From Giardia intestinalis (taxonomy: Eukaryota): a DNA stretch of 64,000 nucleotides. The stretch lies in assembly GCA_000002435.2 (NCBI GenBank), contig CM018792.1. One strand, given 5' to 3'. Below the pieces are notes generated by a model that did not search any database, was not told where the DNA came from, and saw nothing but the letters and a program-made list of their open reading frames with translations. The stretch's first letter is position 1, and every line of letters begins with the position of its first letter. Below, in pieces: positions 8,213 to 36,967 of the stretch. The position numbers and the translations under genes were made by a program.

Positions 8213-8266
8213 CCAGGAATTTTGTGTTGGCTGCAATTTCACATGAACTTGCGATCGGAATTTACA

Positions 8267-9559
8267 ATGGACCCCGAGAGCACCCTGCTTGGCGCGGCAA
8301 TCCAGGAGCTCTGGGCCATCAGCCGCCGCCTCGACGAGCTCTCGGCTCGGAAGGCGCCTCTAATGACCGCGATTGCGGTGCGCGAACAGAGGCTCGCCGC
8401 CCTCGAGGTCGCTCTCGGGGCCCCCACGCCCCGTCACAGAGCAGCCCTTGTGACGCGCAGCAGCGCCGTGTCTCTTGAGCAGGCGACTGCAGCCCAGATC
8501 TACGCGGGCCAGCCGCCCCTTCTCTACCTCCAGGACCGCGAGTCGCACATAGGCTCAACTCGCATGGCCCCGCTCCCTACAGACCCGTGCGCCGCCTTCG
8601 CGAGCGAGGAGGCCTCCAGCTTCGTCGGCTTCGAGCCGGCCTATCCAACGAACATCGCAGGGATCGGCGGGGTCCTGGGGCCCCGCTCGGGCATTCCCCT
8701 ACGCCTCCGCCCCGTGAAGAACCGCTTTCGCGCAAACGACGACCTTGTCAAGGGCCTTCGGACGCTTTCGCCCGCAGACGCACAGGGCGCGCCCTACTTT
8801 TCCCGCCCAGTTGTCTCCCCGGACGACGAGCACGACGACGTGACGCACCTCCAGGCGGTCCAGAACGTCGGGCTCTACGCCGCAGCGCCCCTGCTCCCGC
8901 TGGCATCGGCGCCTGTCGGGCCTTCGAGGACACACGCCCGTCAGCGGCAGTTCAGCGTCGTTGGGGTCAGCAAGGCGGTCGAGGAGGCCTTCGAGTTTGC
9001 AAACATCGAGCGCCTGGTGGCAGACCTCAACGACGACGGGGTGCCGTCTGCGGTTGAGCCCTCCTCGGCCGCGCCTGTGCTTCCTCGGGCCCGCGGGTCG
9101 CTTGCGGGCAGAGGTGGGCGTGCGCCGGGGATCTGCCGCCTCTCCACGCACCGCGGAGTGCCCAGCCGCCCGGCCTCTGGGGGCTCTGCATTCGACGAGA
9201 CCCGTCGCATCGTCGGCGAGATGATGGCCGGCAGCGCCGCCCCCACGCTCGACCGTCTGCGCCGCGCATTTGCAGACCGAAACCTCCGACTGCGACGAGC
9301 GCTCGCCGCGCGCCTCGAGACCCAGGTGCTCTGCCTCCGCTGGCAGCGTCTGGAACGGCCCCTGAGTCGCCCGGTAGACAAGACCCTCGACCTCCTTTGC
9401 AAGCACCGGCTCAACAGCCTACCCGGCTTTGCCACGAGTAGTTTGCGCCTGATGAACCGAAGCAGGCGCCACGGAGTTGCGTGGGAGGGGTTTACACCGG
9501 TCACAGGCTCCTCCCCCGGCCCCGGAACTCCTCGGCAGGAGGCGGAAGTGTCTCTGTAG
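8267..9559 (+). CDS. Hypothetical protein (430 aa, G+C-rich, no recognised domain)
   Basis: In the ORF-track frame 8126-9559 I take the start as the ATG at 8267 (MDPESTLLGAAIQELW). It is preceded by aatttacaATG. The upstream in-frame part would overlap the divergent ankyrin gene. The sequence is non-repetitive, but the product is unassigned. Confidence 0.5.
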   Translation: MDPESTLLGAAIQELWAISRRLDELSARKAPLMTAIAVREQRLAALEVALGAPTPRHRAALVTRSSAVSLEQATAAQIYAGQPPLLYLQDRESHIGSTRMAPLPTDPCAAFASEEASSFVGFEPAYPTNIAGIGGVLGPRSGIPLRLRPVKNRFRANDDLVKGLRTLSPADAQGAPYFSRPVVSPDDEHDDVTHLQAVQNVGLYAAAPLLPLASAPVGPSRTHARQRQFSVVGVSKAVEEAFEFANIERLVADLNDDGVPSAVEPSSAAPVLPRARGSLAGRGGRAPGICRLSTHRGVPSRPASGGSAFDETRRIVGEMMAGSAAPTLDRLRRAFADRNLRLRRALAARLETQVLCLRWQRLERPLSRPVDKTLDLLCKHRLNSLPGFATSSLRLMNRSRRHGVAWEGFTPVTGSSPGPGTPRQEAEVSL

Positions 9560-10313
9560 GCCGGACGTCCTCGGGCCCGTCCTCGCTGGCCACGAGAGCC
9601 TCGTCCTCCGGGGACAAAGGCCTCCTGAAGGCTCTTCGCGGCAGGACATACGCTGCGACGACGCCCGAGAGCGTGTAGGGAACGCCCTCCCAGGGGGGAT
9701 AGAGCATCACCTGGGCCATGAGGACGGTGACGAGGATGACGCCCCACGCCGGGATGGGGCACCGGAAGCAGCAAGTGAACGACTTATGCCCGGACAGCCG
9801 GATCCCCATAATCGTCAGGAATACCAGCAGGGGTCCGGGCCCCATGTTCGCATTGCTTGTCCACTGGGCGGCGAAGTACGGGACGTCCCGGAGGCCGGGG
9901 GTGAGGGCGAGGAGGGCCGTGAGGGCCGACGTCAGAAGGGAGACGCAGGGGACCGCAAAGGCGAGGAGCCCGAGAAAAACCTTCCAGCCGACGGTCCGCT
10001 CCAGTAGGAACGCAGAGTTCCAGCCGATCAAGGCGAAGAGGGCTCCCTGGAAGACGGACTCCGGGAGAACAGGGGCGCTGACCAGCCGCCAGAGCTCCAG
10101 GTCCTTGTATGCACGCTCCATATTGATGGAGAGCCAGATTGCAGCCTGGAAGCCCCCCGCCAGCGAGGCCAGCGACAGGGAAAGGCCGGCGAGCAGCTCG
10201 AGGGCAAGAAGGCAGAGTGCACACCGGGGCATCGCGAGAAGCGCAGCTCCGAACCTGTGGCAGCATCCCGCTGGCCGTGCCGGGGGGTCGTCAGGTTGCA
10301 TGCCGGGGGGCAT
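9501..10313 (-). CDS. Multi-pass membrane protein (~5-6 TM helices); weak Derlin-like WRL motif after TM1 (speculative)
   Basis: The ORF-track start at 10316 is TTG. The ATG at 10313 gives MPPGMQPDD. Clear hydrophobic helices are present (LLAMPRCALCLLALELLAGLSLSLASLAGG, FLGLLAFAVPCVSLLTSALTALLAL, PLLVFLTIMGIRL, WGVILVTVLMAQVMLY). The motif LELWRLVSAPV is reminiscent of the Derlin QxWRLxTxF motif. The 3' end overlaps the convergent gene at 8267-9559 by ~59 nt. Confidence 0.5.
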   Translation of the reverse strand: MPPGMQPDDPPARPAGCCHRFGAALLAMPRCALCLLALELLAGLSLSLASLAGGFQAAIWLSINMERAYKDLELWRLVSAPVLPESVFQGALFALIGWNSAFLLERTVGWKVFLGLLAFAVPCVSLLTSALTALLALTPGLRDVPYFAAQWTSNANMGPGPLLVFLTIMGIRLSGHKSFTCCFRCPIPAWGVILVTVLMAQVMLYPPWEGVPYTLSGVVAAYVLPRRAFRRPLSPEDEALVASEDGPEDVRPTETLPPPAEEFRGRGRSL

Positions 10314-10324
10314 CAAAATTATAA
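10314..10324. promoter_or_regulatory. 11-nt A/T-only bidirectional initiator between divergent ATGs (CAT caaaattataa ATG)
   Basis: Read directly. It lies inside otherwise very G+C-rich DNA. Confidence 0.5.
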
Positions 10325-11665
10325 ATGCCTATCAGCGATGGCATCCCGACGGCCATCCTCACAGCCCACCGGGGACGCATTCGGGCGCTGCTTCTGACAC
10401 TCCACGGCCAGCTGGGCCTCCGGGAGGTTGTCTTTGCAGCCCTGGCCAACCTTTCCCTGCTCGAGCCCCCAGGGCCCGCTGCGGCACCCACGCCCCTCCC
10501 CGACTATGATTGCTGCGAGCTCTACCAGGTCGTCACCAGGTCTCGCCGTAACCTCCTCCAGTGGCTCCCCCCGCTCCACTTGACCCTTGAAGACCTCCGG
10601 CGTGTCCAGACGCGTGTCCGGGGCGACGCCGAGCTCCTCACGTTCTTCCTTGTTGTGAAGCAGCACGTCACCCGGCTCCGATACACCCACCCCCTGGCAC
10701 AGCCTGGAGGTCCCGGGCTGGCTGCCGCCCCCGAGGCAAGCGCCCGCTGTCGGGACATCGGGTACGCCGCAGCAGACCTCCGAGGGTCAACGCGCGCCAG
10801 TCTGGACCCCGCAGACCTTCTGGGCGGCCCCTTGGAGGACCCGGCGCTGGCTGTCTGCCGCACCCTCCGGGGCCTTCATCCGGCTCCCTGGGTCCTTCCC
10901 ATGGGCGTCCTTGCGCAGCACTACGGCACGTTTCTGCAGCGATCCGGGGTCCAGGGGCCGTTCTTTGTGCGCGTCGTCCAGATGCCCCCGATCACGCCCT
11001 CGGGTGGCCAGGAGTCTCGCCGGCTGTTTTCGCGCCGCCAGTTTCTTGAGGTCGGGCTGTACGTGCGGGCCGGAAGCACGCTCTACACGCTCCTCCTTCC
11101 TCTCGTGGCCGTCGGGCGCGCCCTCCATCACCTCGCCGTGGCCACTCGACTTGCCGCCCCCTGGCCGCTGCTCCTGTCTCCAGACCTGCTCCTGGCAGTC
11201 CGTGTCTCCCCCATCGGCTTCGCCGTCCACGTCCTCTCGACGTTCTGGACCGTCTGCGTCATCTACATCTTTCAGCTCGCGAGCGTTCCCAGCCTCGCCG
11301 CCCTGGCCGCCCTCTACTGGAAGACCTACGTCGTCACGTACGCCGCCAAGGCCCTCATCTACAGCACCGCGAACTTCCTGCCGCCCGCGCCAATCGTCGA
11401 GTTCATCAAGTCTGCAGACCCCGTGGGGGCCGAGGGCGTCCTCTACCACGCGTTCTTCGACGACTTCTTCCGCGAGGACTGCGAGCAGCGGGCCCATGGG
11501 GGCTACCGGAGGGTCGCGCAAGCCCCGGCTGTCTTCAAGCTCCTCGAGGAGGCGAACATCAATCTTCCGCAGCCCCAGGGGCCCCGCATGCACAGCGCCG
11601 CAAGGCTTGTGCTCCTGCTGTTGGCCACGCTGCTTCCAAGCTTCGACCCTCAGAGACGCTTCTAG
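10325..11665 (+). CDS. Hypothetical protein (446 aa) with hydrophobic C-terminal half
   Basis: The ATG sits in catcaaaattataaATG. This is an A/T-rich initiator shared head-to-head with the gene at 9501-10313. The sequence is non-repetitive. Hydrophobic segments are visible (LYTLLLPLVAVGRALHHLAV, FAVHVLSTFWTVCVIYIFQLASVPSLAALAALYW). The stop lies 7 nt before the next ATG. Confidence 0.55.
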   Translation: MPISDGIPTAILTAHRGRIRALLLTLHGQLGLREVVFAALANLSLLEPPGPAAAPTPLPDYDCCELYQVVTRSRRNLLQWLPPLHLTLEDLRRVQTRVRGDAELLTFFLVVKQHVTRLRYTHPLAQPGGPGLAAAPEASARCRDIGYAAADLRGSTRASLDPADLLGGPLEDPALAVCRTLRGLHPAPWVLPMGVLAQHYGTFLQRSGVQGPFFVRVVQMPPITPSGGQESRRLFSRRQFLEVGLYVRAGSTLYTLLLPLVAVGRALHHLAVATRLAAPWPLLLSPDLLLAVRVSPIGFAVHVLSTFWTVCVIYIFQLASVPSLAALAALYWKTYVVTYAAKALIYSTANFLPPAPIVEFIKSADPVGAEGVLYHAFFDDFFREDCEQRAHGGYRRVAQAPAVFKLLEEANINLPQPQGPRMHSAARLVLLLLATLLPSFDPQRRF

Positions 11666-11672
11666 TCAAAAA

Positions 11673-12623
11673 ATGGAAGAGGTCGTCATTGCCACGGGGA
11701 GCTACGACGGGTCGATCAAGCTCTGGCGGCCGACCTCTGAAAGTGCGCTCCGCACGCTGAACTTCGGAAAGGTCGCCAACGGGCTGGCCCTCAGCGCGGA
11801 CCGGAAAGTCCTGCTTGCAGCCGGGTTCTCCGCCACGACCGTTTATGACCTCGGCTCTGCCGGGCGGGACCCAGTCGCCGCCTTCGACGGACACCTCTCC
11901 AACGTCACAGGATGCTGCTTTCTCCAGGGCGACTCGACCGTCGCCAGCGTGGGCGAGGACGGACGCCTTCTGCTCTTCGACACCCGCGGGGGGAAGCAGA
12001 CTAGCTGCATCGTCCACGACGCGGCCCTCAACACGCTCTCTGTCGCGTGCGACCGGGGGGATGCGGCGCTCCTCGTCACGGGAGATCAGGAGGGTCGCCT
12101 GCTTGCGTACGATCTGCGCCAGCCCCGGCACCCCTTCGCAACGACGGTCGCGTTCGAGTGCGACGTCGGCGTCCGTTCGGTCAGCTGCGCCCCGGGGGCT
12201 CAAATCCTCGCGTGCTCTGACGGGCGGGGCATCGTCCGCGTCTACGCCTACAAGGGCAGCAGCCACTTCTTCGCGCCTCAGCAGTCCATCCAGGCGCACT
12301 TGGATGCCGTGATGCACGTCAACCTCTCTCCGGACGGGGCCGTCCTGGCGACGTGCAGCGCCGACAAGACTTGCAAGATCTGGTCCGTTGCTCTTGAGGA
12401 GGACTGCTATCTGACGCGCGCCCGCGTGCTGGGGACAAACGAGGCCACGGTCTGGGCGAGCGCCTTTAGTGCGGACTCGGCGTGCATCATCACGGCCGCA
12501 GACAAGAGCGCGAAGCTCTGGAACATCGCGGGCGACCCGACCGACAAGTATGTCTACGCCTACAACGGGCACTCGCACACCGTGACGACGGTGGTTCTCG
12601 GAGACGTCCGCCTTCCCCTGTGA
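11673..12623 (+). CDS. LST8: LST8 (G-beta-like, TOR complex subunit), 316-aa seven-WD40 protein
   Basis: The ORF-track ORF 10911-12623 carries a spurious Ser/Pro/Arg-rich N-extension overlapping the upstream gene. The real start is aaaaaATGgaagag ([18 protein letters not shown]). It aligns by eye with human MLST8 along its length. Examples: VILATAGYDHTVRFW; LATCSADQTCKIW against [37 protein letters not shown] against [31 protein letters not shown] against YNGHSHTV. Confidence 0.8.
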   Translation: [316 protein letters not shown]

Positions 12624-12657
12624 TTCCCTGCGCCGTTCCCTGCGCGCCTGCAAAAAG

Positions 12658-13842
12658 ATGCTCTATAGCGCTTCAGATGTCGAACGCGTTCCTACGGACT
12701 CCCGAATCTGCGTCCTCCTGACCACCCTCTTTACCGTCCCTCCCGGCGGCGATCCTGCCGAGCCGAGCCAGCGGTGCCCGCGCAAGACGTTTATCTCGGC
12801 GATCCTCGAGGGCTCTGGCCGCGGGCTGCAGGGCTCCTGGGAGGAGGTCGCAGAGCCCGTCTGCCTGCTCGAGGCGTACGATCCCGCCCTGCCCTACGCG
12901 ATCCGGGTCGCAGCGGGCGCCGGCCGGGTCGCCCGGGACCCGACGCTCCCTGCCTCGCACTACCTCTATGCCGCACACAAGCAGGGCCTCTCCGTGGGCT
13001 GCCCACACTATGTCCGGGGCTGCCTCCTCTACTGCGCAGTCTGCGGAGAGCGCTCTCCATGCCGCTTCTGCCACGATGCCTCCCACGACGACCACGAGTT
13101 CCCGCGGACCCGCACGGCAGAGGTCTTCTGTCTCTTCTGCCGCGCCACCGGCCCCATCGGGCTCCGCTGCACACACTGCCAGATGCCCTTCGGGACGCGC
13201 TACTGCGAGACGTGTCGCCTCATCTGCGGAATGGGCCGCGAGGGGCGTCCGAGCTTCCACTGCGCCCGCTGCGGGACGTGCCGGCAGGGCCTTCCGGGGT
13301 ACTCGGAGCACTGCGAGCGTTGCGGGACATGCCACACAGTCGCCCTTGGCCAGGTTCACGCGTGCGCGCCGGACCCCGGGAACTGCGTCTACTGCCTCGA
13401 CGGCCTCCGGGACAACATCTACCCGTACATCGTCCTTCCCTGCGGGCGCCACTCGTGCCACCGCCACTGCTACGAGGCCGTCTTTCGCCTGGGTGGGGCG
13501 AACTACAAGTGCCCGGTCTGCCGCCGGCTCGTCCTCTTCGGGCAGGACAGGGAGCTCTACGAGGCGCGCCTGGAGGAGCTCCGGGGATCGCTTGCGGTCC
13601 CGCCCGAGTACCGGGGCGTCTTCGTCGACTGCGCATGCCACGAGTGCGGCGGGCTCTTTGTCGCCCGGCGCCACCACCTCTACCGCTGCCCGGGCTGTGG
13701 CTCCCACAACGCCGCCGAGCGCGGGCTCTTCAGAGGCGCCGCCGCAGACGCGCGCCGCGCAATCGCGCTCCAGGCCCGCTCCGGGGCGTTTACTAGAACA
13801 GGGCGTCAAGGGCCGCCTCCAGCTGGGCCCCAAACTGGGTAA
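12658..13842 (+). CDS. RCHY1: CHY zinc-finger + CTCHY + RING-H2 + C-terminal zinc-ribbon E3 ubiquitin ligase (Pirh2/RCHY1 type)
   Basis: Motif order: GCPHYVRGCLLYCAVCGERSPCRFCHD..H (CHY finger); CLFCRATGPIGLRCTHCQMPFGTRYCETCRL..FHCARCGTCR..EHCERCGTCH (CTCHY); CVYCLDGL..PYIVLPCGRHSCHRHCYEAVF..YKCPVCRR (RING-H2); CHECGGLFVARRHHLYRCPGCGSHN (zinc ribbon). The ATG is preceded by tgcaaaaag. Confidence 0.8.
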   Translation: MLYSASDVERVPTDSRICVLLTTLFTVPPGGDPAEPSQRCPRKTFISAILEGSGRGLQGSWEEVAEPVCLLEAYDPALPYAIRVAAGAGRVARDPTLPASHYLYAAHKQGLSVGCPHYVRGCLLYCAVCGERSPCRFCHDASHDDHEFPRTRTAEVFCLFCRATGPIGLRCTHCQMPFGTRYCETCRLICGMGREGRPSFHCARCGTCRQGLPGYSEHCERCGTCHTVALGQVHACAPDPGNCVYCLDGLRDNIYPYIVLPCGRHSCHRHCYEAVFRLGGANYKCPVCRRLVLFGQDRELYEARLEELRGSLAVPPEYRGVFVDCACHECGGLFVARRHHLYRCPGCGSHNAAERGLFRGAAADARRAIALQARSGAFTRTGRQGPPPAGPQTG

Positions 13843-16270
13843 GCCGGTGGCTAGGCTCATCACAAAACCCTTTTGGTACTTCACTTTCTGCAAGTATCAC
13901 TTGCCCTGGTGCAGAGGTTTCCGTAGACCCTAAGAGAGACCAGGTATTGTTGAAGGCTTGTGGTTGCTCTTCTATGCAAGGCTCTCTCTTTGTGTGTCCA
14001 CCTAATGCACGAATCATTTGTCTGCCACTGGCCCGTGTGCTTATTAGTGCATACACCTGCCCGTCAGGGCTACAATCTACCCCGCATACTCTATCTCGCT
14101 TATGCCGTTTTTCAAAAATGACTACCTTTTCTTCTATTGCACCGTTCGCTAGCTTAAAAAGCATGCCCTTATCATCACCAATTCCAAAGACATAATGACG
14201 ATCGTTACTGTCAGGATGCGGAGATAGACAAACTTGGTGTATTATTGGCAGGCTGATACTTAGAGGCCGCTTCCTATTAGAATCCTGCTTCTTTGTAGAG
14301 ATACTTGAGTCCCTAATAAACTTATAGTAAAATATTCCTGCTGGGCTGGTGATGCAGACAGAGGTATCACCGACGGCACACATAGTTCTTCGGGTTCGGT
14401 AAGATGAACTCTTTCCTCTAGTCGCTAATAGGTCGAACCTCTCCAGCACCTTGATGCTCACGGGAAAAGGGTGACCATTCTCACTCTTTTCTGAACCGGA
14501 GTAAATAATCTCATAGACGCGCAGCTCCAAGTGGTGCTTATCAAGCTCTGCGTCCCCGAGTACTGCACAGAAATAATGGCCATTTCTAGAAACTCCAGCT
14601 GCTTCCACCCATATGGGAATATCCCCAAGACCATCGCAGATGTCCCAATTAAATACCTCGACAATGCCTGCGTCGGTGAACGTGAAGACCTTAGCCTCTA
14701 GCTGGCTAACAGTTAAAAACAAATCGCAATTAGGAACAGACAACAGAGGAGCCAGCAACTTCACAGACGTGCTGTGCGGCCGAAAAATTTGGGCGAGACA
14801 GATGGAATCGTCAAAACGGCCAGTAGCACGATAAGCATAGAGCACCTCCTCTTGGTGAACATTGTGCGTCAGTTTTAGTCCTGTAACAGCAAGCAACAAA
14901 GATCCGTTAGCCAGCGCAGCGAAGTGAAGGATATGCGGAGGATCCGAGATTTCACATCGAGAATAGACTTTGTTTCGTTGTATAATAGTCACTATATCAG
15001 TTGAGTTCGTGGGTAGCAAAGCAGAACTTGGTATATTTTCTACCCCGTGGAAAAGCTGGATGTCTCCTGGAGACCCATCAGCTAGTATGCTGAGCTGGTC
15101 GTTCTCGCCATATAAGAAGATTCCTGGAGTATCCTTTGGTGTGTAACGCAAATTTCTAGCTGGAGAGACTAACCCATGCCTCTGAGCCATAATGACACCA
15201 GCAGCGGTATCTATCAAATACATTGTGTTGGTTGCTGTAACTACGCACGCCGTCTGGGAGTAGGTAAGAGAGGTTGGAGAGAAGATTGACGGACAAGGGC
15301 ACGAGATGTACCGTACCGGTCCAACCACAGCCGGTCCAAATTGCGGAGTATAATCAAGAAGCGAAAGATTGACCACGATTGTTTCCTCTCCTCCCAGTAG
15401 GACCTTAGGAGTGGCAGTGGTGGCATGAGCAACAGCCAACGCACTGATCCCATTTTTATTCCAATGGAACCGAACATGCTTTGATTGAGCAACAGTGGTT
15501 CCTATTGGTATGCCTTCAAAGCGGTACAGAGCCCCGCGAAGATCACCCATCAAGAATCCATAGGAGGTGCGATGGTTAAACGCAACCAACTGAGTAATAC
15601 AGGCGTCATGAGACATTGTGGAATAGTTATCTGGAAGCCTTCGTGGGGAGTCGGGCCTAGAATGCGGAAATCTGGCAAAGAAAAGCGTACAATCAATAGC
15701 TATATAAATGACGTCATCTGAAATGATTAGTCGACTGCTCGTCCGCTGCAAAGTAAGTTGGTCGGGAGTGACAGGCGGGGGATTCAAACAGACTACATCA
15801 GATAGGTCAAAGACGGCCTTACGCGGGTTGTTGGCTGCAGCCGAGAGACTGTACAAGATGAGAAAATGGGTTCTGTTCTTCGCTGCTTTGGCTTCCAGTA
15901 AGAAGACAAACTGATCAGATCCATCACACTGTGCACACGCAACAAATTCTGGCTCGTGCTGCAAAATGGATCCGTCCTTAGTCTTTTTGGGCCCCTTGTC
16001 CTCTGGTAAGGAGACTTCAAGCGAGAAGTCCCCCGTCCGTGTATTGTAAATAGAGAATCGATGCTTCGAGAGGATGAGAAGCTGTGAATCTGATGCGCGT
16101 AGGAACAAGAGTTGGACTATCCGCCGTTTATGTGTTGGTACTACCTTCAAGAGAGCAAGTGTCACTGGAGACAGTGCAATTATGGAGTCTCCGGTGGCAG
16201 AATAGATTGCGCTACCATCTGGAGCAAATGCAGGAGGGCAGGACGCCATAAAGCCACCGAATGCATCCAT
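13793..16270 (-). CDS. WD40/beta-propeller protein (825 aa), possibly t-UTP UTP17/WDR75-like nucleolar SSU-processome component
   Basis: ATG MDAFGGFMAS. The N-terminus pattern GGFMASCPPAFAPDGSAIYSATGDSIIALS resembles WDR75 (GGSELNFRRAVFSADSKYIFCVSGDFVKVYS). Multiple WD-like blades run through the protein. The 3' end overlaps the convergent RCHY1-like gene by ~50 nt. The stop TAG is embedded in AGTAAAC on the minus strand. Function is low confidence. Confidence 0.7.
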   Translation of the reverse strand: MDAFGGFMASCPPAFAPDGSAIYSATGDSIIALSPVTLALLKVVPTHKRRIVQLLFLRASDSQLLILSKHRFSIYNTRTGDFSLEVSLPEDKGPKKTKDGSILQHEPEFVACAQCDGSDQFVFLLEAKAAKNRTHFLILYSLSAAANNPRKAVFDLSDVVCLNPPPVTPDQLTLQRTSSRLIISDDVIYIAIDCTLFFARFPHSRPDSPRRLPDNYSTMSHDACITQLVAFNHRTSYGFLMGDLRGALYRFEGIPIGTTVAQSKHVRFHWNKNGISALAVAHATTATPKVLLGGEETIVVNLSLLDYTPQFGPAVVGPVRYISCPCPSIFSPTSLTYSQTACVVTATNTMYLIDTAAGVIMAQRHGLVSPARNLRYTPKDTPGIFLYGENDQLSILADGSPGDIQLFHGVENIPSSALLPTNSTDIVTIIQRNKVYSRCEISDPPHILHFAALANGSLLLAVTGLKLTHNVHQEEVLYAYRATGRFDDSICLAQIFRPHSTSVKLLAPLLSVPNCDLFLTVSQLEAKVFTFTDAGIVEVFNWDICDGLGDIPIWVEAAGVSRNGHYFCAVLGDAELDKHHLELRVYEIIYSGSEKSENGHPFPVSIKVLERFDLLATRGKSSSYRTRRTMCAVGDTSVCITSPAGIFYYKFIRDSSISTKKQDSNRKRPLSISLPIIHQVCLSPHPDSNDRHYVFGIGDDKGMLFKLANGAIEEKVVIFEKRHKRDRVCGVDCSPDGQVYALISTRASGRQMIRALGGHTKREPCIEEQPQAFNNTWSLLGSTETSAPGQVILAESEVPKGFCDEPSHRLTQFGAQLEAALDALF

Positions 16271-27332: not shown

Positions 27333-30300
27333 TTACTTTCTAAAGTCCCAGCAGTCCCCGTTGTTTGAAAGCTGGCCGCTCTTAGTGAAGATACTGGTGG
27401 TGCTATCCACGGGGTCGTAGACACGGCTCACAGACATCTCCGTCGCCGTGCAATCTGATATCATGGGGAAGAGCTCGCTATCGGTCAATGACACCACACT
27501 CATGCTAACCTCGATCATCGTCTCCTTGTAGTCCTTCGAGCGCATGAACTCCATACTATAGAGGTACCTGAACGTGACGTTCTGGCATATTCCACCGAAG
27601 AAGAGCCCGGCCCAGATGAGGTACTGGCAGAAGAAGATGGCTCCGAACGTCTCCAAGAGCCCCGTCCCCAGCGTCAGGCTCCTAATGCTCTCGGGGACCA
27701 CCTCTAATACGTAGGGAGTCGCCAAGCCCTTGGGCCCTGCCAGGATGTCCAGGAGCCTATTGAGCTGGACGTCGAGCGGCTCTATCACGTGCTTGTTGAC
27801 GGTACTTCCAAGCTCCATCAAAAGCGTGTCGTACATATGCTGAGAAAACCGCGGGTACAATCCTCCGGACAGGTTCTTCGAAACCATGTTTGCTTCGATG
27901 ATATCTAAGAGGATGGACAAAGGGGAGACTACAGCGTTGAGCAGCTCTGTGTATGCATCTATGAAGCTGACCTCATCGGTTGAAAAGCTACTCCAATCTT
28001 TAAACACATCCACAAACCGCTCATAGACCCTTGTTGTGTCTAGCACCACATCTAGTGCCCCGCTGGAGCCATCGTTCGGATTGCTCGCAGCATTCCAGCC
28101 AATCGTCTGGAAGCCCTTTTCCTGAAGCGCATACACGAGGTCTCGCACGGCTGCGTATGTGTTGGAGACGCAAATGGAGGTCTGTTCTACGGTGTCACCT
28201 GGGCGGATCTTCGTGCACAGGTTTCCAACGAGGTCTGGGTATGGAGACCCGTGGACGATGGAGGACAGGCTAGTGGAGATGCTTGGACACGAAGTCTTGA
28301 GGTTGGTTAGTTCGGCTCTTATCTTCTGCATTGTGCTCTTAATACTGCCCTGTGAACACAGATTCTTATCGACGGGGTTATCGGCAAGGAAGGTCACCGA
28401 GGGGCACTTTGTCATAGCGACCAAAGTATCCAGAAAGTGAATCATGGAAAGGCACTCTGCGACTATCCCCTTCTGGCCCCTAACGGCTTTGGCACTGGCT
28501 TCGAGGGACAGGGCGCTATAGTTCGCGCTGGAGGAAATGCCTCTGATATAGGCCTCAACCTGCGCTGTGACATTCATGGCAGCCAGAGCAGATGCATCAA
28601 CATCTCCGTACAAAGCTGTGCGCTTTTCTGTACTGGAGTATGTGTCGTTATATAGCTTGTGCCCTGCAGAGAAGTCCCCGAACAGGACGGCGTTCGAGAG
28701 CTCGCCACTGAGGAACGCGTTCCTAATCCCGCTAAGAAACGGATCAATGTCCGGAACAATGAAGGTCTCGAGGTACTGTGAGAGGCTGGAGCGGGGGTTG
28801 ATAGCTTCGGGTAGCACCGCGGGCAGCAGTCCTTGGAGCCCGCCCAAAAGATCCGGCAAGCCGAGGATATCGAGGATCCCTCCACCCTTCTTGTTGTAAT
28901 AGAGGAGGTCTTTGATGGACATGCGAGTTGTATCCACCCTCGTGGAAAGGCTCAGAGAGGCCATGCTGTCGTCAGGTTCGGCAGGAATCCCAAACATGCT
29001 CGGCAGGTTTCCGACGGCAACGGTAGCTGTCACGTTGGCGAGGCTCTTACGGAGAGCATCGTATGTGGTGTAATCCAGCACGGCGGACGACGGGGCTGTG
29101 TAGGCTAGGTCGGGGTGCCCCGTGTGCCGGAGCACAAAGGATCCCAGGTCCAGCTGGACCGGCGCAGGGTCTCCTATGACTCCGTTGTCTTTGAGGAGTT
29201 GGAGGACGGTGTCGTAGTTGTTGCGCAGAAGCTTGTCTGGGTTGGTGAGGAGCCCCGAATAGTACTCCAGAGCGAACTTCTGCAGAACCACCGCGACGAT
29301 CCCGAACAGCATCAGGAAAAGCGACACCCAGCAAACAACGCACCCGTTGCAGCACAAAGAGCAGCCAGCGCACCTCGTCTTGAAGCGCGCAGCGCCCACG
29401 ATCCCGCAAATGAACGTCCCGATTGGGACGAGGAGAAGAGCCAGGGCGAGCAAGAAAGGGGCCATCGATATCAGAACGTAATTGCGGCCAGCAGGCGGAA
29501 TCGTTGCCGGATCAAACCCAGAGAGCTTGCAATTCTTCAACGAGTCCAACGCACCGCCTTCTACAGGCAGGTCTGTTATGTAACCGGGGCAGGCCCCGTT
29601 GTTTATGAAGGCGTCGAACAGAGCACGCGCAGTCATCTGCTCCTTGTGGTCGTGGAGTTGCAGCACGTAGTTGATGTACTTGGAGAAGCTGGAGACCTGT
29701 GTCAGGGCATCGGTTGCGAGCTTAGGCAGGTTCAGCTGGTCGCTGATAGATCTGGCGAGCTCTTCGTCTGTTGGTCCTCCCTCGGCCCGCGTGGCAGACG
29801 CACACCACGATAGCTTGCCCTTAAGTGCCGGCTTGCCACACGCCCTCCGGACTATGTCCCCCACGGTTTGCGTCTTCGTGCTGAGTACTTCAAGCAAGTC
29901 AACGAGTAGTTGTGTGTCATCCTTACTCTGCTGTTTGCCAGACGCCTTCGGCCTTAACGAGTCTATAACGAACTTTATCACTATTTCGGGGTTGTTGTTG
30001 ACCGGGACATTCAGATCTGCTCTGTCAATAGGTGAATCGGAGGCAGCAGCAACACTGGACTTTGTTGTGCAATAATTATTTCCTGAGTTATCCTTAAAGA
30101 CCTGCTTGCACACCTTTTCAATGATAGTTTGCCAATTTCCTTGACCTGGTGGTTGCTGCTTATCTAGCGACTTCGCTATCCCGTTGGTGATAGAATTGGC
30201 CGCAAAGACAGCCCCGCCAATAAGAGACTTCTTGTTGATGTTCTTGTAGCTGGCCTCGGAGATTGCCGTGTCATCGGGTGGAGACGGAGGTTGCGTTGAT

Positions 30301-31106
30301 CGTATAGAGAAGTTGCCATAATTTTGCTTGCCTTCTAAACTCTTCTTTACTGATTCTTGCGTCTTTGTGTTCAACAATAAATCTAAGTTTTTCTGTATGT
30401 TATCTGAGAAATCTGTGATAGCACTCAACGAGGGTAGGGACGCAGGCGGCAGAAGGATGGTGCTGACCCCCTCTGCCAGCGAGGAATTCTGCGACAAGAC
30501 ATCAGAGACCACCCTCAGCGTGCAGCTCTTGGAAATCGCGCTTATGTACTCGCTGACCTCGTCTGCTGTTTTATTCAAGATATTGGAGATTGGGGAAATG
30601 GAACTATTATCTGAGCTCGAGATGAGCGCGTTTATAAGACTGTCTGAGGTGCTAATGGTGTCCGAAGCCAGATCGTAGACGCGATCGGTCGTTCGAGCCA
30701 CGACCCGGAACATGTTGTCCATGCCAATGAAGGGCTGGGAGACGGCGACGAACATCCCGATGCATCCGCAGAGGCCGATGACGTTGGCAGCGAGGCCCGT
30801 GTAGAAGCAGCAGCAGCGGTACTTGCTGGATGTCTGCTCCATCTCCAGCTTCCGGTGGCAGCATCTGCGACAGCACTGGCTACACCGGCAGGGGGCTATG
30901 CAGACGAGCGCAATGTTGAAGCAGAGCCCGAGGACAAAGGGAAGAACAAGCAGGACGCCCATGGCAACCAGGAGCGGAAGATACGGCTTGAGGGCAGCCA
31001 TGACATCCACTCCCCCGCCCTGGTGCATGAACAGGTTGGCCGTATCTATGATTGTTTCCGGCGGCACCCTCGGGAAGAACGCCGTACTAAAGGCCGTGAC
31101 CCCCAT
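27333..31106 (-). CDS. Large (1257 aa) five-TM membrane glycoprotein-like protein with two Cys-rich juxtamembrane loops; prominin-like topology
   Basis: The ORF-track start at 31109 is TTG. The ATG is at 31106. The order is TM1 (LPLLVAMGVLLVLPFVLGLCFNIALVCIAP), a Cys-rich short loop (CRCSQCCRRCCHRK..YRCCCFY), TM2, a ~500-aa loop, TM3 (FLLALALLLVPIGTFICGIVGAA), a Cys-rich loop (RCAGCSLCCNGCVVC), TM4, a ~600-aa loop, TM5 (LETFGAIFFCQYLIWAGLFFGGIC), and a C-terminal tail. Confidence 0.75.
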   Translation of the reverse strand: MGVTAFSTAFFPRVPPETIIDTANLFMHQGGGVDVMAALKPYLPLLVAMGVLLVLPFVLGLCFNIALVCIAPCRCSQCCRRCCHRKLEMEQTSSKYRCCCFYTGLAANVIGLCGCIGMFVAVSQPFIGMDNMFRVVARTTDRVYDLASDTISTSDSLINALISSSDNSSISPISNILNKTADEVSEYISAISKSCTLRVVSDVLSQNSSLAEGVSTILLPPASLPSLSAITDFSDNIQKNLDLLLNTKTQESVKKSLEGKQNYGNFSIRSTQPPSPPDDTAISEASYKNINKKSLIGGAVFAANSITNGIAKSLDKQQPPGQGNWQTIIEKVCKQVFKDNSGNNYCTTKSSVAAASDSPIDRADLNVPVNNNPEIVIKFVIDSLRPKASGKQQSKDDTQLLVDLLEVLSTKTQTVGDIVRRACGKPALKGKLSWCASATRAEGGPTDEELARSISDQLNLPKLATDALTQVSSFSKYINYVLQLHDHKEQMTARALFDAFINNGACPGYITDLPVEGGALDSLKNCKLSGFDPATIPPAGRNYVLISMAPFLLALALLLVPIGTFICGIVGAARFKTRCAGCSLCCNGCVVCWVSLFLMLFGIVAVVLQKFALEYYSGLLTNPDKLLRNNYDTVLQLLKDNGVIGDPAPVQLDLGSFVLRHTGHPDLAYTAPSSAVLDYTTYDALRKSLANVTATVAVGNLPSMFGIPAEPDDSMASLSLSTRVDTTRMSIKDLLYYNKKGGGILDILGLPDLLGGLQGLLPAVLPEAINPRSSLSQYLETFIVPDIDPFLSGIRNAFLSGELSNAVLFGDFSAGHKLYNDTYSSTEKRTALYGDVDASALAAMNVTAQVEAYIRGISSSANYSALSLEASAKAVRGQKGIVAECLSMIHFLDTLVAMTKCPSVTFLADNPVDKNLCSQGSIKSTMQKIRAELTNLKTSCPSISTSLSSIVHGSPYPDLVGNLCTKIRPGDTVEQTSICVSNTYAAVRDLVYALQEKGFQTIGWNAASNPNDGSSGALDVVLDTTRVYERFVDVFKDWSSFSTDEVSFIDAYTELLNAVVSPLSILLDIIEANMVSKNLSGGLYPRFSQHMYDTLLMELGSTVNKHVIEPLDVQLNRLLDILAGPKGLATPYVLEVVPESIRSLTLGTGLLETFGAIFFCQYLIWAGLFFGGICQNVTFRYLYSMEFMRSKDYKETMIEVSMSVVSLTDSELFPMISDCTATEMSVSRVYDPVDSTTSIFTKSGQLSNNGDCWDFRK

Positions 31107-31376
31107 CAATTATTATTTGTACTAATTGTCATGCATCATAAGTACGTTTTTCAGAACAGTGCGCCATTCTCCTCCTGGCACACTAGGTACCCTCTGCCGC
31201 CTTTTGCCGCCTCAACGCGGATTGCCTGTCTCAATAATTTGTAGACACTTGTCCGACAATTCGCCGTCTTACCTCTTCTCTTACCGGGGCCAGGGGTCGA
31301 CGAGGTTCCTAAAGTTATACACAAAATCTCGAATTCGTCGATTTCAGATTTAGATTTAAAGCTGCTGAAAATAAAT

Positions 31377-33017
31377 TCACTCGTCGGAGGCTGTCTCGCA
31401 CTGCTTCTTGTAGTCCAGGGTCCACTTGATGTAGATGATCATGGACACCAGGCCAGAGACGGCGTCCCCGACCGCGGGCGAGATGAAGATGCCGTGCACG
31501 GGGTCGACCTGGCTCTTGGTCGCCTTGACGATGAGCGGCAGGACGAAGATGCACACGATGGTGACGGCTGCTCGCGTAAGCTGCAGTATCGTGCTGAGGA
31601 CGGTCTTCCGCTTCATCTGCGACACAGAGACGGTGATGCTCACGAACAGCTGGAGAGGAAGCCCGGCCAGCCCGAGCCGCACGGCCAAGGCGGAAATGGC
31701 CCGCTCCGTCTCTCCGTCGCCCGCAAAGAGATACATAAGAGGGTAGGCCAGGCCCTCGCAGAGCCCCCAGACGGCCAGGGTCATGACCACGCCGATCAGG
31801 CTAGTGTAAACGAGGACAAGGTAGACTCGGTCCAGTTTCTTGGCCCCCAGGTTATAACCGAGGATGGGTGTCAGGGCCTGGACAAGACCTATAATGGGCA
31901 TAGAAACTAGGGTGGTTACCCTTGTCACTATCCCTACAGCGCTGCGATTGATTTCTTGGTTGGCCTGGGAAATAATTGTAGTATAGTAAGCTGCCAAGAG
32001 AGAACACACAGAGCTCGAAACACCGTTGATGTAAAAGGGGAAGCTGATCGCAAGGAATCTATAGATGATCATTCCTAGTGAAGATCGCTTAGCAGCCGGC
32101 TGAGGGTTGTCGGCAACTGTAGTATGTGGCGGGCACGACGGTTCCCCTGCAATTGTCTCAAAGCTCATCCCATCCTGCATGTCCGCATGAACCATCTCTA
32201 TTGTACTTTTCACATTTTCTAGCTCAACGGCTTCTGTGGACGTCTCAGAAGACGACTGGAGCTGTCGTTCGTCGTGGTCTCTCAGCTCGTCTACATTGTA
32301 TCGCAGAAGTCCGAACTTACACCGGAGAACGCCCCCTTTGATTAAATCAAAGATGTTTAACACCATCCAAATAGAGACTATGAGGAGGCTGATGCAAGTG
32401 GACGCCGATGCCGCGTAGTACTCCATTTTCGGGACACAGTAAAAGAAGATCGCATCAAGGACGATGTTCAGAACAGCTCCAAGCAGTTGCCGCCACATAG
32501 AAAGATTTGCCCTGTTCTCTGCACGCAGGATAGGGCCCATTGAATTAGAAAACATGTATGTGATGGTATATCCAGGAATAGCAACAACACCATACTGCTG
32601 CGCGTACCTAAAGACGTTGTTCGTGGCGTTAAACATAGAAAGAATGTTGGGTAGAAGAGGCAAGAGGATAAGCATTGCAAGCCCCCAGTAGATTAGCCCC
32701 ATGCATATAAACACTGTCGTATAGTAGTTAGCTATTCTGAACTGCTTCTGGCCTAGTGCCGGAGAGATGTATGTAGAGGCACCATATGCCATAGACAGGC
32801 TGGGGAAAAGCAGAGCTATGACATCAATGGGGGCGAACACAGATAGCGCACTTAGGCCGTCTGTGCCAAGAAATTTGGCAATGAAAATTGCATCAACGTT
32901 CATGTAAATAGCAGAAATGACCATTGAGAAAATGCACGGTACAGAGAAAGAACAGAGCAGTTTAAAGACGGGCGCTTCACCGAGTCGTTTGACCTTCTCA
33001 GTATGAACATTTGACAT
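31377..33017 (-). CDS. MATE-family (multidrug and toxic compound extrusion) transporter, ~12 TM
   Basis: The ORF-track start at 33056 is GTG. The ATG at 33017 (MSNVHTEKVKRLGEAPVFKLL) is preceded by aaatatttataattatcattcaaaaaATG. The MatE signature N-lobe (NVDAIFIAKFLGTDGLSALSVFAPI) and a repeated C-lobe are present. The protein is very hydrophobic. Confidence 0.8.
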   Translation of the reverse strand: MSNVHTEKVKRLGEAPVFKLLCSFSVPCIFSMVISAIYMNVDAIFIAKFLGTDGLSALSVFAPIDVIALLFPSLSMAYGASTYISPALGQKQFRIANYYTTVFICMGLIYWGLAMLILLPLLPNILSMFNATNNVFRYAQQYGVVAIPGYTITYMFSNSMGPILRAENRANLSMWRQLLGAVLNIVLDAIFFYCVPKMEYYAASASTCISLLIVSIWMVLNIFDLIKGGVLRCKFGLLRYNVDELRDHDERQLQSSSETSTEAVELENVKSTIEMVHADMQDGMSFETIAGEPSCPPHTTVADNPQPAAKRSSLGMIIYRFLAISFPFYINGVSSSVCSLLAAYYTTIISQANQEINRSAVGIVTRVTTLVSMPIIGLVQALTPILGYNLGAKKLDRVYLVLVYTSLIGVVMTLAVWGLCEGLAYPLMYLFAGDGETERAISALAVRLGLAGLPLQLFVSITVSVSQMKRKTVLSTILQLTRAAVTIVCIFVLPLIVKATKSQVDPVHGIFISPAVGDAVSGLVSMIIYIKWTLDYKKQCETASDE

Positions 33018-33539
33018 TTTTTGAATGATAATTATAAATATTTTGTGGGAAACCACACGTTAAACAGAACTTTACCAATCTCTCGCCAAGTATGCCCCGG
33101 CCGTCCAGTTGTGACGCAGTAAGTAGTAACGTAGATTGCTGCATTTATCATTTGATCACATAATGGAGTGAAGATTATAGCGAGAAGCTGATGAAGTCAA
33201 ATCAGGCAACACACAGCATTATTGTAGATTCGAATTTAAATTACTACGCCGAGACAAATCCACTAAGACGGGGTAGGTCAATTTAGAAGGAGTAGTATAG
33301 TCGCTCTAGATATCCACTTAGCGCATGACCGATTCTATGAGCTTTATGGCTCCGAGCTGTCAGCCGGGTCAGACCGACCCGCCGAGTGCATCTACGAAGA
33401 TATCTCCACAGTCTTTGCCGGCCGGTACGTGGAACTTGTGACTGAATTCCCTGACGCGCCGACTGTGTCGGACACGTGCGATGTTACGTGGAGTAACATC
33501 TGCAAACGCGCTCCTGTCTACTGCTATCACTGCTTCGCT

Positions 33540-34094
33540 ATGAAAGATATCAAGGCCCAGCAGTCAAAGCCCAAGTCTAACGCCAAGTCCAGACAAACAG
33601 GCGAGCACGGAGCAGCTAGCGGGTCTCCTGCGGGGAATACTCTATCTGAGAAGAGCAGTGTCAAGAAGAAGAAGAAGACTCCTCAGGCTTCCCCAGGCAA
33701 AGGATCCGTCACCGTGGAATTTGCTACTCCGTCGGATGGCAGGAGAGGTAACAAGAAAAACGGGAAGCCGGAAAGCGACGAAAGTGGCCAGAAGGATGGC
33801 GGCTCATCGCGTAGGAGGAAGGGCAGCAGCCCATCGCTGCCGATTTCCAAGAGGTTCGAGTCTGACGAGGAGGCCAGGGAATTTGCAAAGACCCTCAGTT
33901 GGGAGAGGTGCATGGTGATAGAGAAGAACAGCAGCCTCGATCTTGCAGAGCTGCACCTGATGTGCACAAACAATGGCAGCTACTTGAGCTACGTCTCCGA
34001 CAACTACATCTTCTACGGCTTTCCCAGGTCACAAGAGGTGAACATAGATATCTACAGGCGCTCCATGTCCGACACAAACATGTTTCTTGTCTAG
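33540..34094 (+). CDS. Hypothetical basic Lys/Ser-rich protein (184 aa from first ATG; ORF-track frame opens at a GTG at 33429)
   Basis: The ORF-track ORF 33429-34094 begins with GTG. The first in-frame ATG is at 33540 (MKDIKAQQSKPK). It has a KKKKK basic stretch and a conserved-looking C-terminus (WERCMVIEKNSSLDLAELHLMCTNNGSYLSYVSDNYIFYGF). Start assignment is uncertain. A 37-codon Cys-containing N-extension exists only if a non-ATG start is used. Confidence 0.4.
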   Translation: MKDIKAQQSKPKSNAKSRQTGEHGAASGSPAGNTLSEKSSVKKKKKTPQASPGKGSVTVEFATPSDGRRGNKKNGKPESDESGQKDGGSSRRRKGSSPSLPISKRFESDEEAREFAKTLSWERCMVIEKNSSLDLAELHLMCTNNGSYLSYVSDNYIFYGFPRSQEVNIDIYRRSMSDTNMFLV

Positions 34095-34177
34095 CCACGC
34101 GTAGGCCCCTGTGGGAGGCCTCCGTGTGCATTGTAAAATCACTATCTTTTTCTGATTGCATCCTGGTGTTCTGGAAG

Positions 34178-35002
34178 ATGTCTGCAGACAGCTCGGGCGC
34201 AAGGATCGCGCTATTCACGGATACACACCTCGGGTTCACTGCCCCGTCTGCACGCCCCTGCAATGCCCACGAAAACTACCTGCTTCTTGAGGAGTGCCTC
34301 TGTCTGGCCCGCAAGCTGGGCGCGCATGCTATCCTGCACGCCGGAGACTTCTTCAACCAGAACAGGCTGTCCAGCAAGAAGGTCATCAAGGCAATCTGTG
34401 CACTGAGACGATACGGGGTCTCGTCCTTTGCAGGCCACAGCGACGGCGACTCGATACCCATGGCCCTCATCTACGGCAACCACGACAACAACGATAAGAT
34501 TTTGGGCCTCCTGGAGGCGGCCGGGGCGGTGAGTCTCCTGGGGCACACTCAGGCCGGCAAAAGCCTTACGCTCCATCCTTTCTGCCGGGTAGTTGGCGGT
34601 GTAGAGCTCGTCGTGTACGGACTGGATTACCACAAAGCGTGGCAGAGGGATGTGGCACCCGAGATTTCCTTTGCCCCGGCCGCTCGCTCAGCTCTGAAGG
34701 ACGAAGCGGTGGGGAGAGGCGCTAAAGGAGGACGCAGGCACGCACGATACACCTTCCTGGTTCTTCACCAAGACTATTCAGACCAGGTTGGAAGAGACAA
34801 GATCAGCCTTTCATTCGTCGACCAGTGGAATCATACGCATGCCCCGGAAGAGCGCATAGACTTTGTGTACATAGGGCACGAGCACGACGAGACGCCTCCT
34901 CGCGACGGGGAGACGTTCACGCTTCTCATGCCCGGCTCTCCGCATAGACAAAGCAGGAAGAGAAGCCTTCCCGACTTATACTTGCTGTCTCTGCCTCTAT
35001 AG
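34178..35002 (+). CDS. Mre11-type calcineurin-like phosphoesterase, nuclease core only (274 aa); lacks capping and Rad50-binding regions
   Basis: The phosphoesterase motifs are in Mre11 order and spacing. [11 protein letters not shown] (I, against ILVATDIHLGF). [12 protein letters not shown] (II, against GGDLFHENKPS), within a block [20 protein letters not shown] ~ [27 protein letters not shown] (III). LVLHQD (IV). IGHEHDE (V/VI). LLMPGSP ~ YISQPGSS. The ORF stops 10 codons later. No continuing frame exists downstream. Confidence 0.7.
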   Translation: [274 protein letters not shown]

Positions 35003-35343
35003 TGGAAATGGCTGGCTGGCTCACGATTAGGTATTCAGTATGCAATAAACTGGTGTGTAGTTGCGTTGCTATGGGTCTGAATCATCTTAGGCAAAGGATG
35101 CTCAATTCTACTTGCTCGTAACTTTTATTTCGGCTCTTGCAAGCAATATTGAGCAAACGAGTAAAGCGCGCCTTTTGCATTATAACTTCAACAAACTCGG
35201 TAAATAAAAGTCAAGACATGAGCTGTACAAGCAACCATTTCCGTAAAGACAGGTCAGATATGCGTTGATACCCTTGTTACGTCCAAGTGTTGTGCCTTAC
35301 ATTGTCCGTAATCAGTTCTTAATTCCATCAGTCGATATCTCAG

Positions 35344-35377: not shown

Positions 35378-36967
35378 ATGGCCAGCAGCGGCCCTGGTGA
35401 TTCATCATGCTCTATAAATCAAGTGAGCGATTCTTCCACCGATGTTAACAGTCATGAATATTGCAGCAAGGAGCAGTCTACAATATCCTGTCTGTCGCCG
35501 CTTAGCTCTAATCATGTCAAGGATGAATCGTCCAAGCAAACGCCGCTTTTTGACGCGCTTGGTGAGGAGTCCCCCAACGGGGGTCAAGAACTTGCGTCAC
35601 AGCCCCTGGATGTGAATCTGGACCGTACCTCAGACCGGGATGTGGCTGTAAGTGAGATGTACAAGCAGACAAAAACAACTATCTCTCCTGAAAAGCGGGC
35701 AGCACTGCAAGTTCTTTATCAGAAGCACGGGTCCCACCAGTCTGTCATATGGTACAGCGCCCAGTCTGAGATACCGAGGTCGATCGTATCGAAGTTTATA
35801 ACGTTCATGGAGCACGGTCTTGATGTGCGGAATCTTTCATACAGAGCACCATGCAAGGCCAGAATGGCCAAGACGACTAGATTCTCTCCGGTAATGTCGA
35901 TGAAAGGCTCTAGAACGGAAGTCTTCTCTGTAGCGTCTCCTATCCAACTCAATACAGTCCAGACAAACCTAGGCAGCTCAATTCTTCATACTGACCCGAA
36001 CAACCTGGTCTTACAAAAGAAGGATGAAATTGTTAAGAAGAATGTAGCAGACACAGAAAAGGCACCAGAGAGTAAGAGAAAGAGAAGAGGTAATGATATC
36101 ACAAAGGATACTGCAGAGTCCATGGAACGTCCACATAAACAAAGAACCTCGAGACAGCAACAACACCCTAACAAAACTCCCGAAGGATCTGCTTCAGAGA
36201 TACTCTCTTGCACTCCGATGCGCTGTAAAGTGGAAACGGAACAGCTTCGCAAGAACAGAAGCAACAACCGCGAGATTCTCTCCGCTAGAGTTACATTTCT
36301 TCGCATAGAGTTCTCCTCACCTTTGACGCCAAGAATTATTAGTCAGTTGTCGAATCAGGAGGCTAGACGTGCTCAGCTTGACTTCATTGAGAGATACAGA
36401 ACAGCTCTGGTAGAGGGACGAACTGCCATGTTCATTTCTGCTGATCACTATGATCTATACGTAAGCGGATCAGAGAATTTGATATCTCTTTCCTTACTAT
36501 CTCTTTTCAGTTCAGACGGAGAGATATTTTGTGAGCTCTTTCTGGATCTGATTGGCAATGAGGTTATCAGCGAGTGGATCACCCACGTTCTCCAGACTCA
36601 ATTTAGCAACAAGGTGCCACTTATAGTCACCACTCACGAGATCCTCAGTACCCTGCCAAATCACTTTCTTTCTAACTCTCTTTCTATTGCCTATTCAAGC
36701 ATTCTTGACGTGCTTAGCCCCGTGAAGCACATGATGGAAATTTGGGAGCATCGAGTAAAGTTCTATAGTCTTCTGAACACGAACCAGACCGTGGAGGAGT
36801 TGCTGGAGCAGCTTTCAACAGAGTTCTTAACACTTCCCAAGACAAGTCTCCTGGGAAAGCTAGCAGAGATACGAGAACGCGTGTGGTGGGAAGTCTATAG
36901 CTCAACTTGGTCTGAGACCTCTAGGCCAAAAACTGAATCTAGTGCATCGGAAGTTCTAGCTCAATGA
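35378..36967 (+). CDS. Hypothetical protein (529 aa): Ser-rich disordered N-half, helical C-half; no recognised domain
   Basis: Non-repetitive ORF. The stop TGA overlaps the next gene's ATG (ATGA). Confidence 0.65.
   Translation: MASSGPGDSSCSINQVSDSSTDVNSHEYCSKEQSTISCLSPLSSNHVKDESSKQTPLFDALGEESPNGGQELASQPLDVNLDRTSDRDVAVSEMYKQTKTTISPEKRAALQVLYQKHGSHQSVIWYSAQSEIPRSIVSKFITFMEHGLDVRNLSYRAPCKARMAKTTRFSPVMSMKGSRTEVFSVASPIQLNTVQTNLGSSILHTDPNNLVLQKKDEIVKKNVADTEKAPESKRKRRGNDITKDTAESMERPHKQRTSRQQQHPNKTPEGSASEILSCTPMRCKVETEQLRKNRSNNREILSARVTFLRIEFSSPLTPRIISQLSNQEARRAQLDFIERYRTALVEGRTAMFISADHYDLYVSGSENLISLSLLSLFSSDGEIFCELFLDLIGNEVISEWITHVLQTQFSNKVPLIVTTHEILSTLPNHFLSNSLSIAYSSILDVLSPVKHMMEIWEHRVKFYSLLNTNQTVEELLEQLSTEFLTLPKTSLLGKLAEIRERVWWEVYSSTWSETSRPKTESSASEVLAQ

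Follow-up and report, generated by a model that had tools for sequence, protein, structure and literature searches.

The closest described relatives of the gene treated here are the eukaryotic Mre11 proteins, in which a nuclease core with a calcineurin-like phosphoesterase fold is accompanied by a capping (DNA-specificity) domain and a C-terminal region. The Rad50-binding helices sit in the C-terminal region of other Mre11 proteins. For Giardia, in-vitro work on Mre11-Rad50 was reportedly published by Sandoval-Cabrera et al. in Biochimie in 2015 (as cited in 10.1101/2025.04.23.650334). Here we describe an open reading frame (ORF) of 274 codons plus stop at positions 34178-35002 (+ strand) of a 64,000-nucleotide stretch of Giardia intestinalis DNA (GCA_000002435.2, contig CM018792.1), called the window below. 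The ORF encodes an Mre11 nuclease core and stops at the expected start of the capping domain; probably it is a decaying partial duplicate of the full-length Mre11 gene, with no independent function.

Two genes of isolate WB are called Mre11 in the supplement of PMC8866875, GL50803_14493 (275) and GL50803_27735, the second being the Mre11 of the meiotic gene set (PMC8866875). In this supplement GL50803_14493 is listed right after the efflux-pump gene GL50803_33787, in agreement with the MatE efflux-pump ORF that lies upstream in the window, and on the basis of the listing "Mre11, 275" beside that gene the window ORF is very probably GL50803_14493. By exact-sequence look-up its product is identical to XP_001705409.1 / KAE8304294.1 / A8BR27, annotated "Mre11" on the 2.76-Mb contig of G. 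intestinalis WB; its 90% cluster is represented by the second WB "Mre11" (817 aa; XP_001706276.1 / AAP35105.1 / E2RU53), encoded on the 1.97-Mb contig of another chromosome. The separate full-length Mre11 that the earlier note had proposed to look for elsewhere in the genome was thereby found. The gene itself is already present in GenBank, UniProt and GiardiaDB as Mre11. No paper was found with GL50803_14493 or GL50803_27735 in its main text, nor any describing the ORF as a partial duplicate or reporting concerted evolution.

An Mre11 nuclease core without capping domain

The ORF product was matched by Pfam to Metallophos (E = 4.9e-11), with no match to Mre11_DNA_bind in its 274 aa; the latter family is not detected in full-length Giardia Mre11 either. 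The calcineurin-like phosphoesterase domain is present with metal-binding motifs I-V (D-x-H, GD, GNH[D/E], H, GH-x-H), and all six motifs quoted in the earlier note were located (residues 10-20, 54-60, 98-104, 194-199, 232-238, and 249-255). Near-invariant catalytic residues of an 88-sequence alignment are kept (D15, H17, D57, N101, H102, H197, H236, plus G253 and S254). In the first homologue search the closest protein was "Mre11, putative" from Giardia lamblia P15 (282 aa, 85% identity), and the matches followed up from a search of 1.84 billion proteins were Giardia Mre11 and one named Mre11 of Tritrichomonas. All 14 matches in a PDB sequence search were Mre11/Rad32, with the human protein on top (3t1i, E = 3e-9). 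The AlphaFold2 model built from the 88-sequence alignment reached a predicted local distance difference test score (pLDDT) of 84.6 and was the model used (single-sequence prediction gave 32); its best 30 Foldseek matches were eukaryotic Mre11 (E about 1e-15), with archaeal Mre11 next. The PDB matches and the Foldseek ranking place the product closer to Mre11 than to other metallophosphatases, SbcD-like proteins included, and refute that it belongs to a different clade (Dbr1, PP2B or the polymerase B subunit), the outcome named in the earlier note as a refutation.

Compared with eukaryotic Mre11 (human 3t1i, S. pombe Rad32 4fcx, C. thermophilum 4yke), nuclease fold and active-site motifs match, with a template modelling (TM) score of 0.7 normalised to the query, but identity is only about 20-23% and the ORF lacks the capping domain, the Rad50-binding helices and the C-terminal DNA-binding region. 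Likeness to the full-length WB protein is of another order: over the first 261 residues 257 of 261 are identical (98.5%; BLASTP, 94% identical overall), the four differences being G86D, F135L, R137Q, and K174E (window copy to parent). After residue 261 follows a 7-residue gap, and the ORF then ends with its residue 274 at parent residue 281, in the first strand after the PGS motif, so that the stop near the start of the capping domain described in the earlier note holds. The phosphoesterase motifs, the upstream spacer and the 3' part of the neighbouring gene are common to both WB loci, whereas parent residues 282-817 are missing from the window copy, which lies on another chromosome in an unrelated neighbourhood. 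The entire C-terminal 536 residues of the parent are absent, and with them presumably the Rad50-binding region. Being a fragment, the ORF thus falls short of Mre11 on two defining features, the Rad50-binding region and the capping domain.

A continuation of the gene was found neither in the 375 nt downstream, as had been noted before, nor elsewhere in the window, and a tblastn search with parent residues 287-817 gave no match anywhere in the window. Splicing or trans-splicing to a downstream exon was considered and rejected: no 5' splice site of the GTATGT type occurs at the end of the ORF or directly behind it, the stop codons of WB and P15 differ, and the window encodes none of the C-terminal part of the parent.

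Three further database matches were examined. P0003 (757 aa) at first resembled a fusion with the downstream gene; it is in fact the full-length Mre11 of assemblage B, called with a clipped N-terminus. P0005 (1251 aa) and P0006 (893 aa), from Logan contigs, are distant relatives at 37-39% identity with large insertions; both have the nuclease core and a family-specific region after the PGS motif, and are probably the Mre11 of other Giardia or diplomonad lineages. Metallophos was the only Pfam family found in P0005, P0006 and full-length Giardia Mre11.

The duplicated segment and its age

As full-length DNA reference we used an assemblage A contig (L002; ENA, 835-aa ORF call) from a closely related A isolate, not WB itself. 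By blastn, window positions 33295-34970 are 96.7% identical to L002 5178-6847, the full-length locus. The segment comprises Mre11 codons 1-264, the intergenic spacer and, from the 372-aa gene upstream, the 3' two-thirds. Both its edges lie inside genes, on the left near codon 120 of this neighbour and on the right at codon 264 of Mre11. The left edge is sharp in the alignment. From there to its stop the translated fragment aligns with the parent protein, beginning NRFYELYGSEL, and stop codons lie just upstream of the boundary; the fragment has no start codon or promoter of its own, and on this alignment the 221-aa ORF called within it (33429-34094) belongs to the gene cut at the opposite end of the duplication and is not an independent gene. 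The 83-bp spacer is presumably the short promoter/initiator region of Mre11.

The right edge is decayed. Beyond 34970 a 21-nt deletion and about 55 nt at 65-70% similarity to the parent are followed, after about 35025, by loss of all homology. In this edge the parent CAG (Gln282) is TAG in the window copy (35000-35002), the stop of the ORF; the P15 copy has the same 21-nt deletion, but CGG at this codon, and stops 8 codons further. The ORF therefore ends because the duplicated segment ends, and the capping domain and all C-terminal parts are missing because the duplication breakpoint lies after Mre11 codon 264. The diverged edge would fit an old duplication with a younger conversion tract.

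About 30 nt past the stop lies a 27-nt block (35032-35058; TATTCAGTATGCAATAAACTGGTGTGT) that is invariant between WB and P15 while the surrounding non-coding DNA has diverged. The block may mark a 3' end or signal polyadenylation, and it possibly predates the insertion.

The insertion site was compared between WB (A1), DH (A2), GS (assemblage B), and P15 (assemblage E). The full-length locus reads Cnd1 - PUF(-) - 682 - 372 - Mre11 - NEK/ankyrin kinase in both A (L002) and B (L003), numbers being protein lengths. The truncated locus of the window and of DH (L005) reads MatE(-) - [duplicate] - 529 - 641 - GLTP(-) - 510(-) - 1702; DH, with the order MatE - 292-aa ORF call - 529 - 641, has the same truncated ORF as WB. 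GS (L004) has the flanking genes of WB and DH around the same site (MatE - 95-aa ORF - 506 - 641). In GS only 837 bp separate MatE from the next gene, and of Mre11 they contain 307 bp (codons ~37-138); start codon and motif I are missing from this piece, HAGD has become HAED and GNHD has become GNYD. This remnant (L004 3309-3615) is annotated as a 95-aa "DNA repair exonuclease" (ESU42383.1) and is 96-97% identical to the GS full-length gene. P15 has a 282-aa ORF at the site, with PSC for PGS in motif VI and a stop position other than that of WB.

The P15 contig (L001; ACVC01000095.1, 1-15000) reads Cnd1 - PUF - 682 - 373, then the truncated ORF, then 524 - 641 - GLTP. Its upstream flank matches the full-length locus and its downstream flank the truncated locus, so that the match to WB is on the downstream side. 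In a collection of 5.8 billion proteins no P15 protein carrying the C-terminal 536 residues of Mre11 was found. Either this hybrid contig is a real translocation through the 1.7-kb repeat, or it is a misjoin in a 454 draft; 30% of the synteny breaks tested in the P15 genome paper failed PCR verification.

Over the 297 bp common to all copies, the truncated copy of WB is 98.7% and that of DH 98.0% identical to the A full-length gene, and the GS fragment is 97.0% identical to the GS full-length gene; any A copy compared with any GS copy gives 74-76%, and A copies compared with P15 about 89%. Paralogues within a genome are thus closer (97-98.7%) than A and B copies at their common insertion site (74-76%). 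WB and DH agree at 99-100% of positions in the single-copy flanks and at 96.4-97.4% exactly within the repeat; the roughly 3-fold higher divergence is confined to the repeat, local non-coding divergence being 0-1%. This drop would fit exchange with the paralogue and/or relaxed constraint. The duplicate appears old because assemblages A, E, and B all have a copy at this site, and gene conversion is suggested because each copy is far closer to the full-length gene of its own genome than to the copies of other assemblages. Most likely, then, a single duplication took place long ago, and its copies have since been overwritten time and again from the full-length gene through interlocus gene conversion.

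Relic or working nuclease

The history we propose would begin with an interchromosomal segmental duplication, in which a copy of ~1.7 kb of the full-length Mre11 locus, now at window 33295 to about 35025, landed between the MatE pump gene and the 529-aa gene. Being blind to gene boundaries, the duplication would have carried along the 3' two-thirds of the neighbour, the 83-bp spacer and Mre11 codons 1-264, and the reading frame, stopping few codons past the breakpoint, would retain only the 5' third of Mre11. The old duplicate would then have been held at 97-99% identity to the full-length gene of its own genome by repeated interlocus gene conversion, while eroding, in assemblage B down to the 307-bp remnant. 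If translated, the 30-kDa product would keep the active site and the N-terminal dimer surface and would have lost the capping domain and the C-terminal region. As the capping and Rad50-binding parts are missing, it could not form a normal Mre11-Rad50 machine, and we infer that any such product has no independent repair role. Judged from its sequence, the copy would be a pseudogene. Most likely the ORF is a by-product of segmental duplication, a gene relic rather than a working minimal nuclease, and the label that suits it best is partial, non-processed duplicate of GL50803_27735.

Several observations weigh against this interpretation. The ratio of nonsynonymous to synonymous substitution rates (dN/dS; Nei-Gojobori over 262 codons) lies below 1 for truncated versus full-length copies (0.33-0.37), although only 15-21 differences enter and the values are confounded by gene conversion. 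It is 0.35 for WB truncated versus A full-length (7 synonymous, 8 nonsynonymous differences), 0.33 for WB truncated versus DH truncated (10 synonymous, 11 nonsynonymous differences), 0.22-0.28 for A versus P15, and about 0.10 for A versus GS; genome-wide Giardia values for comparison are 0.15 and 0.11 (PMC3091692). Both A1 (WB) and A2 (DH) have an unbroken ORF that keeps every catalytic residue, and a similar ORF of 282 aa occurs in P15. RNA-seq tables assign reads to GL50803_14493 (log counts per million about 5), possibly by mis-assignment from the ~98%-identical paralogue. Lastly, gene conversion is read here from patterns of identity.

Taken at face value, these observations would suit an expressed functional paralogue, either a stand-alone nuclease domain or a regulator that pairs with full-length Mre11 by way of the N-terminal dimer interface but is unable to bind Rad50, kept by selection in assemblages A and E. 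WB, DH, and P15 all retain an uninterrupted ORF with every metal-binding residue, a probable promoter spacer was duplicated along, RNA-seq counts are assigned to the gene, the predicted fold is confident (pLDDT 84.6), and dN/dS is about 0.35. All these features are, however, expected anyway for a copy held 98% identical by gene conversion, which alone would suffice to explain why every catalytic motif is still intact. The co-duplicated fragment of the neighbouring gene is equally "open" though it has neither start codon nor promoter; the assemblage B copy is down to 307 bp with damaged motifs; in P15 motif VI reads PSC for PGS and the stop differs; and the 13-residue tail past the breakpoint is junk from the decayed edge. 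We know of no Mre11 reported to be functional without capping domain and Rad50-binding region. A functional paralogue is thus unlikely. Giardia promoters are short, and since the 83-bp spacer was co-duplicated, transcription of the truncated copy is plausible; it is probably transcribed from that spacer. No protein evidence for the truncated copy was found, and it is quite unlikely that in A/E Giardia it is translated as a 30-kDa nuclease-only Mre11, acting as a heterodimer that poisons or tunes Mre11-Rad50 or as a free Mn-dependent nuclease.

An ancient homogenised duplicate would not be needed if Mre11 had been duplicated recently and independently into the same intergenic region in each assemblage. 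Each copy does match its genome's own full-length gene at 97-99% identity, and the end points differ (307 bp in GS versus 1.7 kb in A). Yet the same donor would have had to enter one spacer, that between MatE and the 529-aa gene, at least two times, the GS fragment is nested within the A segment, and the 21-nt deletion and decayed right edge (about 65-70%, far below the core) are common to WB, DH, and P15. We regard independent duplications as very unlikely. That the truncation is an assembly artefact, a collapsed longer gene or a chimeric join such as a 1.7-kb repeat at about 97% identity might induce in short-read assemblers and such as the hybrid-looking P15 contig recalls, is extremely improbable, as 4 contigs in all, among them the 2.76-Mb one of WB, encode the identical 274-aa product, the same ORF recurs in the same context in the DH assembly and in several independent ENA/Logan contigs, and the single-copy flanks are collinear on both sides; the collapse of a longer gene considered in the earlier note is refuted by this agreement between independent assemblies.

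The decaying partial duplicate shares with partial non-processed pseudogenes under interlocus gene conversion the boundary-blind block, the within-genome likeness, the decayed edges, and the erosion in one lineage. Unlike typical pseudogenes of this kind it still has its start codon and a probable promoter, the frame stays open for 274 codons, and it may be transcribed and translated. Of the three alternatives left open by the earlier note, truncated paralogue and degenerating duplicate both stand, given the 257 of 261 residues identical to the full-length Mre11 of the same genome. The third, a novel minimal phosphoesterase, is unsupported because the duplicated DNA ignores gene boundaries, the B copy is a 307-bp remnant, and the gene is already in the databases as Mre11.

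Flanking genes, other features and significance

The earlier note had also described a downstream 529-aa gene followed by a gene joined to it by an ATGA overlap, and this arrangement was recovered (641-aa gene; overlap at 36964-36967). The MatE neighbour on the other side is found in DH and GS as well. P15, DH, and GS all have the 529-aa and 641-aa genes, however much of the Mre11 fragment is left there, so these are unrelated ordinary neighbours. The 529-aa gene matches no Pfam family; as a candidate for a diverged C-terminal half of Mre11 it was rejected, having no similarity to parent residues 282-817 and being kept in GS beside a mere 307-bp Mre11 piece. The ATGA overlap is kept in DH (L005 5631-5634) and P15 (L001 12721-12724); in GS the corresponding two genes lie about 55 nt apart (L004 5283-5338) and do not overlap.

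Elsewhere in the window, an island of 8 kb (6000-14000) has 67% G+C against a background of about 47%, with dense overlapping ORFs on both strands. A 1,258-aa ORF at 27333-31109 (- strand) encodes membrane segments rich in cysteine, and its match to Prominin is weak (E = 1.8e-5), falling short of the gathering score. An Rfam scan of the window gave zero matches.

Table 1 Coordinates of the truncated Mre11 copy, its motifs, its flanks and other features of the window. Residue numbers refer to the 274-aa product.
Feature	Position	Strand	Evidence or remark
Ankyrin-repeat protein	5993-8242	-	Pfam; G+C-rich island
WD40 protein	10911-12623	+	Pfam; G+C-rich island
CHY zinc-finger protein	12658-13842	+	Pfam; G+C-rich island
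MatE efflux-pump gene, left flank	31377-33056	-	Pfam MatE, E = 1.9e-27; single-copy context outside duplicate
Duplicated segment from full-length Mre11 locus on another chromosome	33295-34970	+	1,676 bp; blastn 96.7%
5'-truncated fragment of 372-aa gene	33295-34094	+	Parent residues ~120-372; 95.5% identical to L002
Duplicated intergenic spacer	34095-34177	+	83 bp; 96.4% identical to L002 5972-6054
Truncated Mre11 ORF, 274 aa + stop	34178-35002	+	Identical to XP_001705409.1 / A8BR27
Phosphoesterase motif I	34205-34237	+	D15, H17
Motif II, HAGDFFN	34337-34357	+	D57
Motif III, IYGNHDN	34469-34489	+	N101, H102
Motif IV, LVLHQD	34757-34774	+	H197
Motif V, IGHEHDE	34871-34891	+	H234, H236
Motif VI region, LLMPGSP	34922-34942	+	PSC replaces PGS in P15 copy
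Decayed right edge	34961-35025	+	21-nt deletion versus parent; about 65-70% residual similarity
529-aa gene, right flank	35378-36967	+	No assigned function; single-copy context outside duplicate

The locus reveals no new enzyme class; segmental duplication and conversion are ordinary genomic phenomena. Its practical weight lies in the shared name, for of the two WB genes called "Mre11" only the 817-aa GL50803_27735 is complete, and expression, proteomic or knock-down work aimed at the first 800 nt cannot separate the two copies. The 1.7-kb repeat may also lie behind the join in the P15 draft genome, whether by true translocation or by faulty assembly. Should the nuclease-only product exist after all, it would be a naturally occurring minimal Mre11. 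As a small, clean case of interchromosomal concerted evolution the locus bears on the debate on recombination and low heterozygosity in Giardia. On a further, less likely reading the 1.7-kb repeat would be an active substrate of interchromosomal recombination in a supposedly asexual parasite, and the P15 contig would then be a real translocation.

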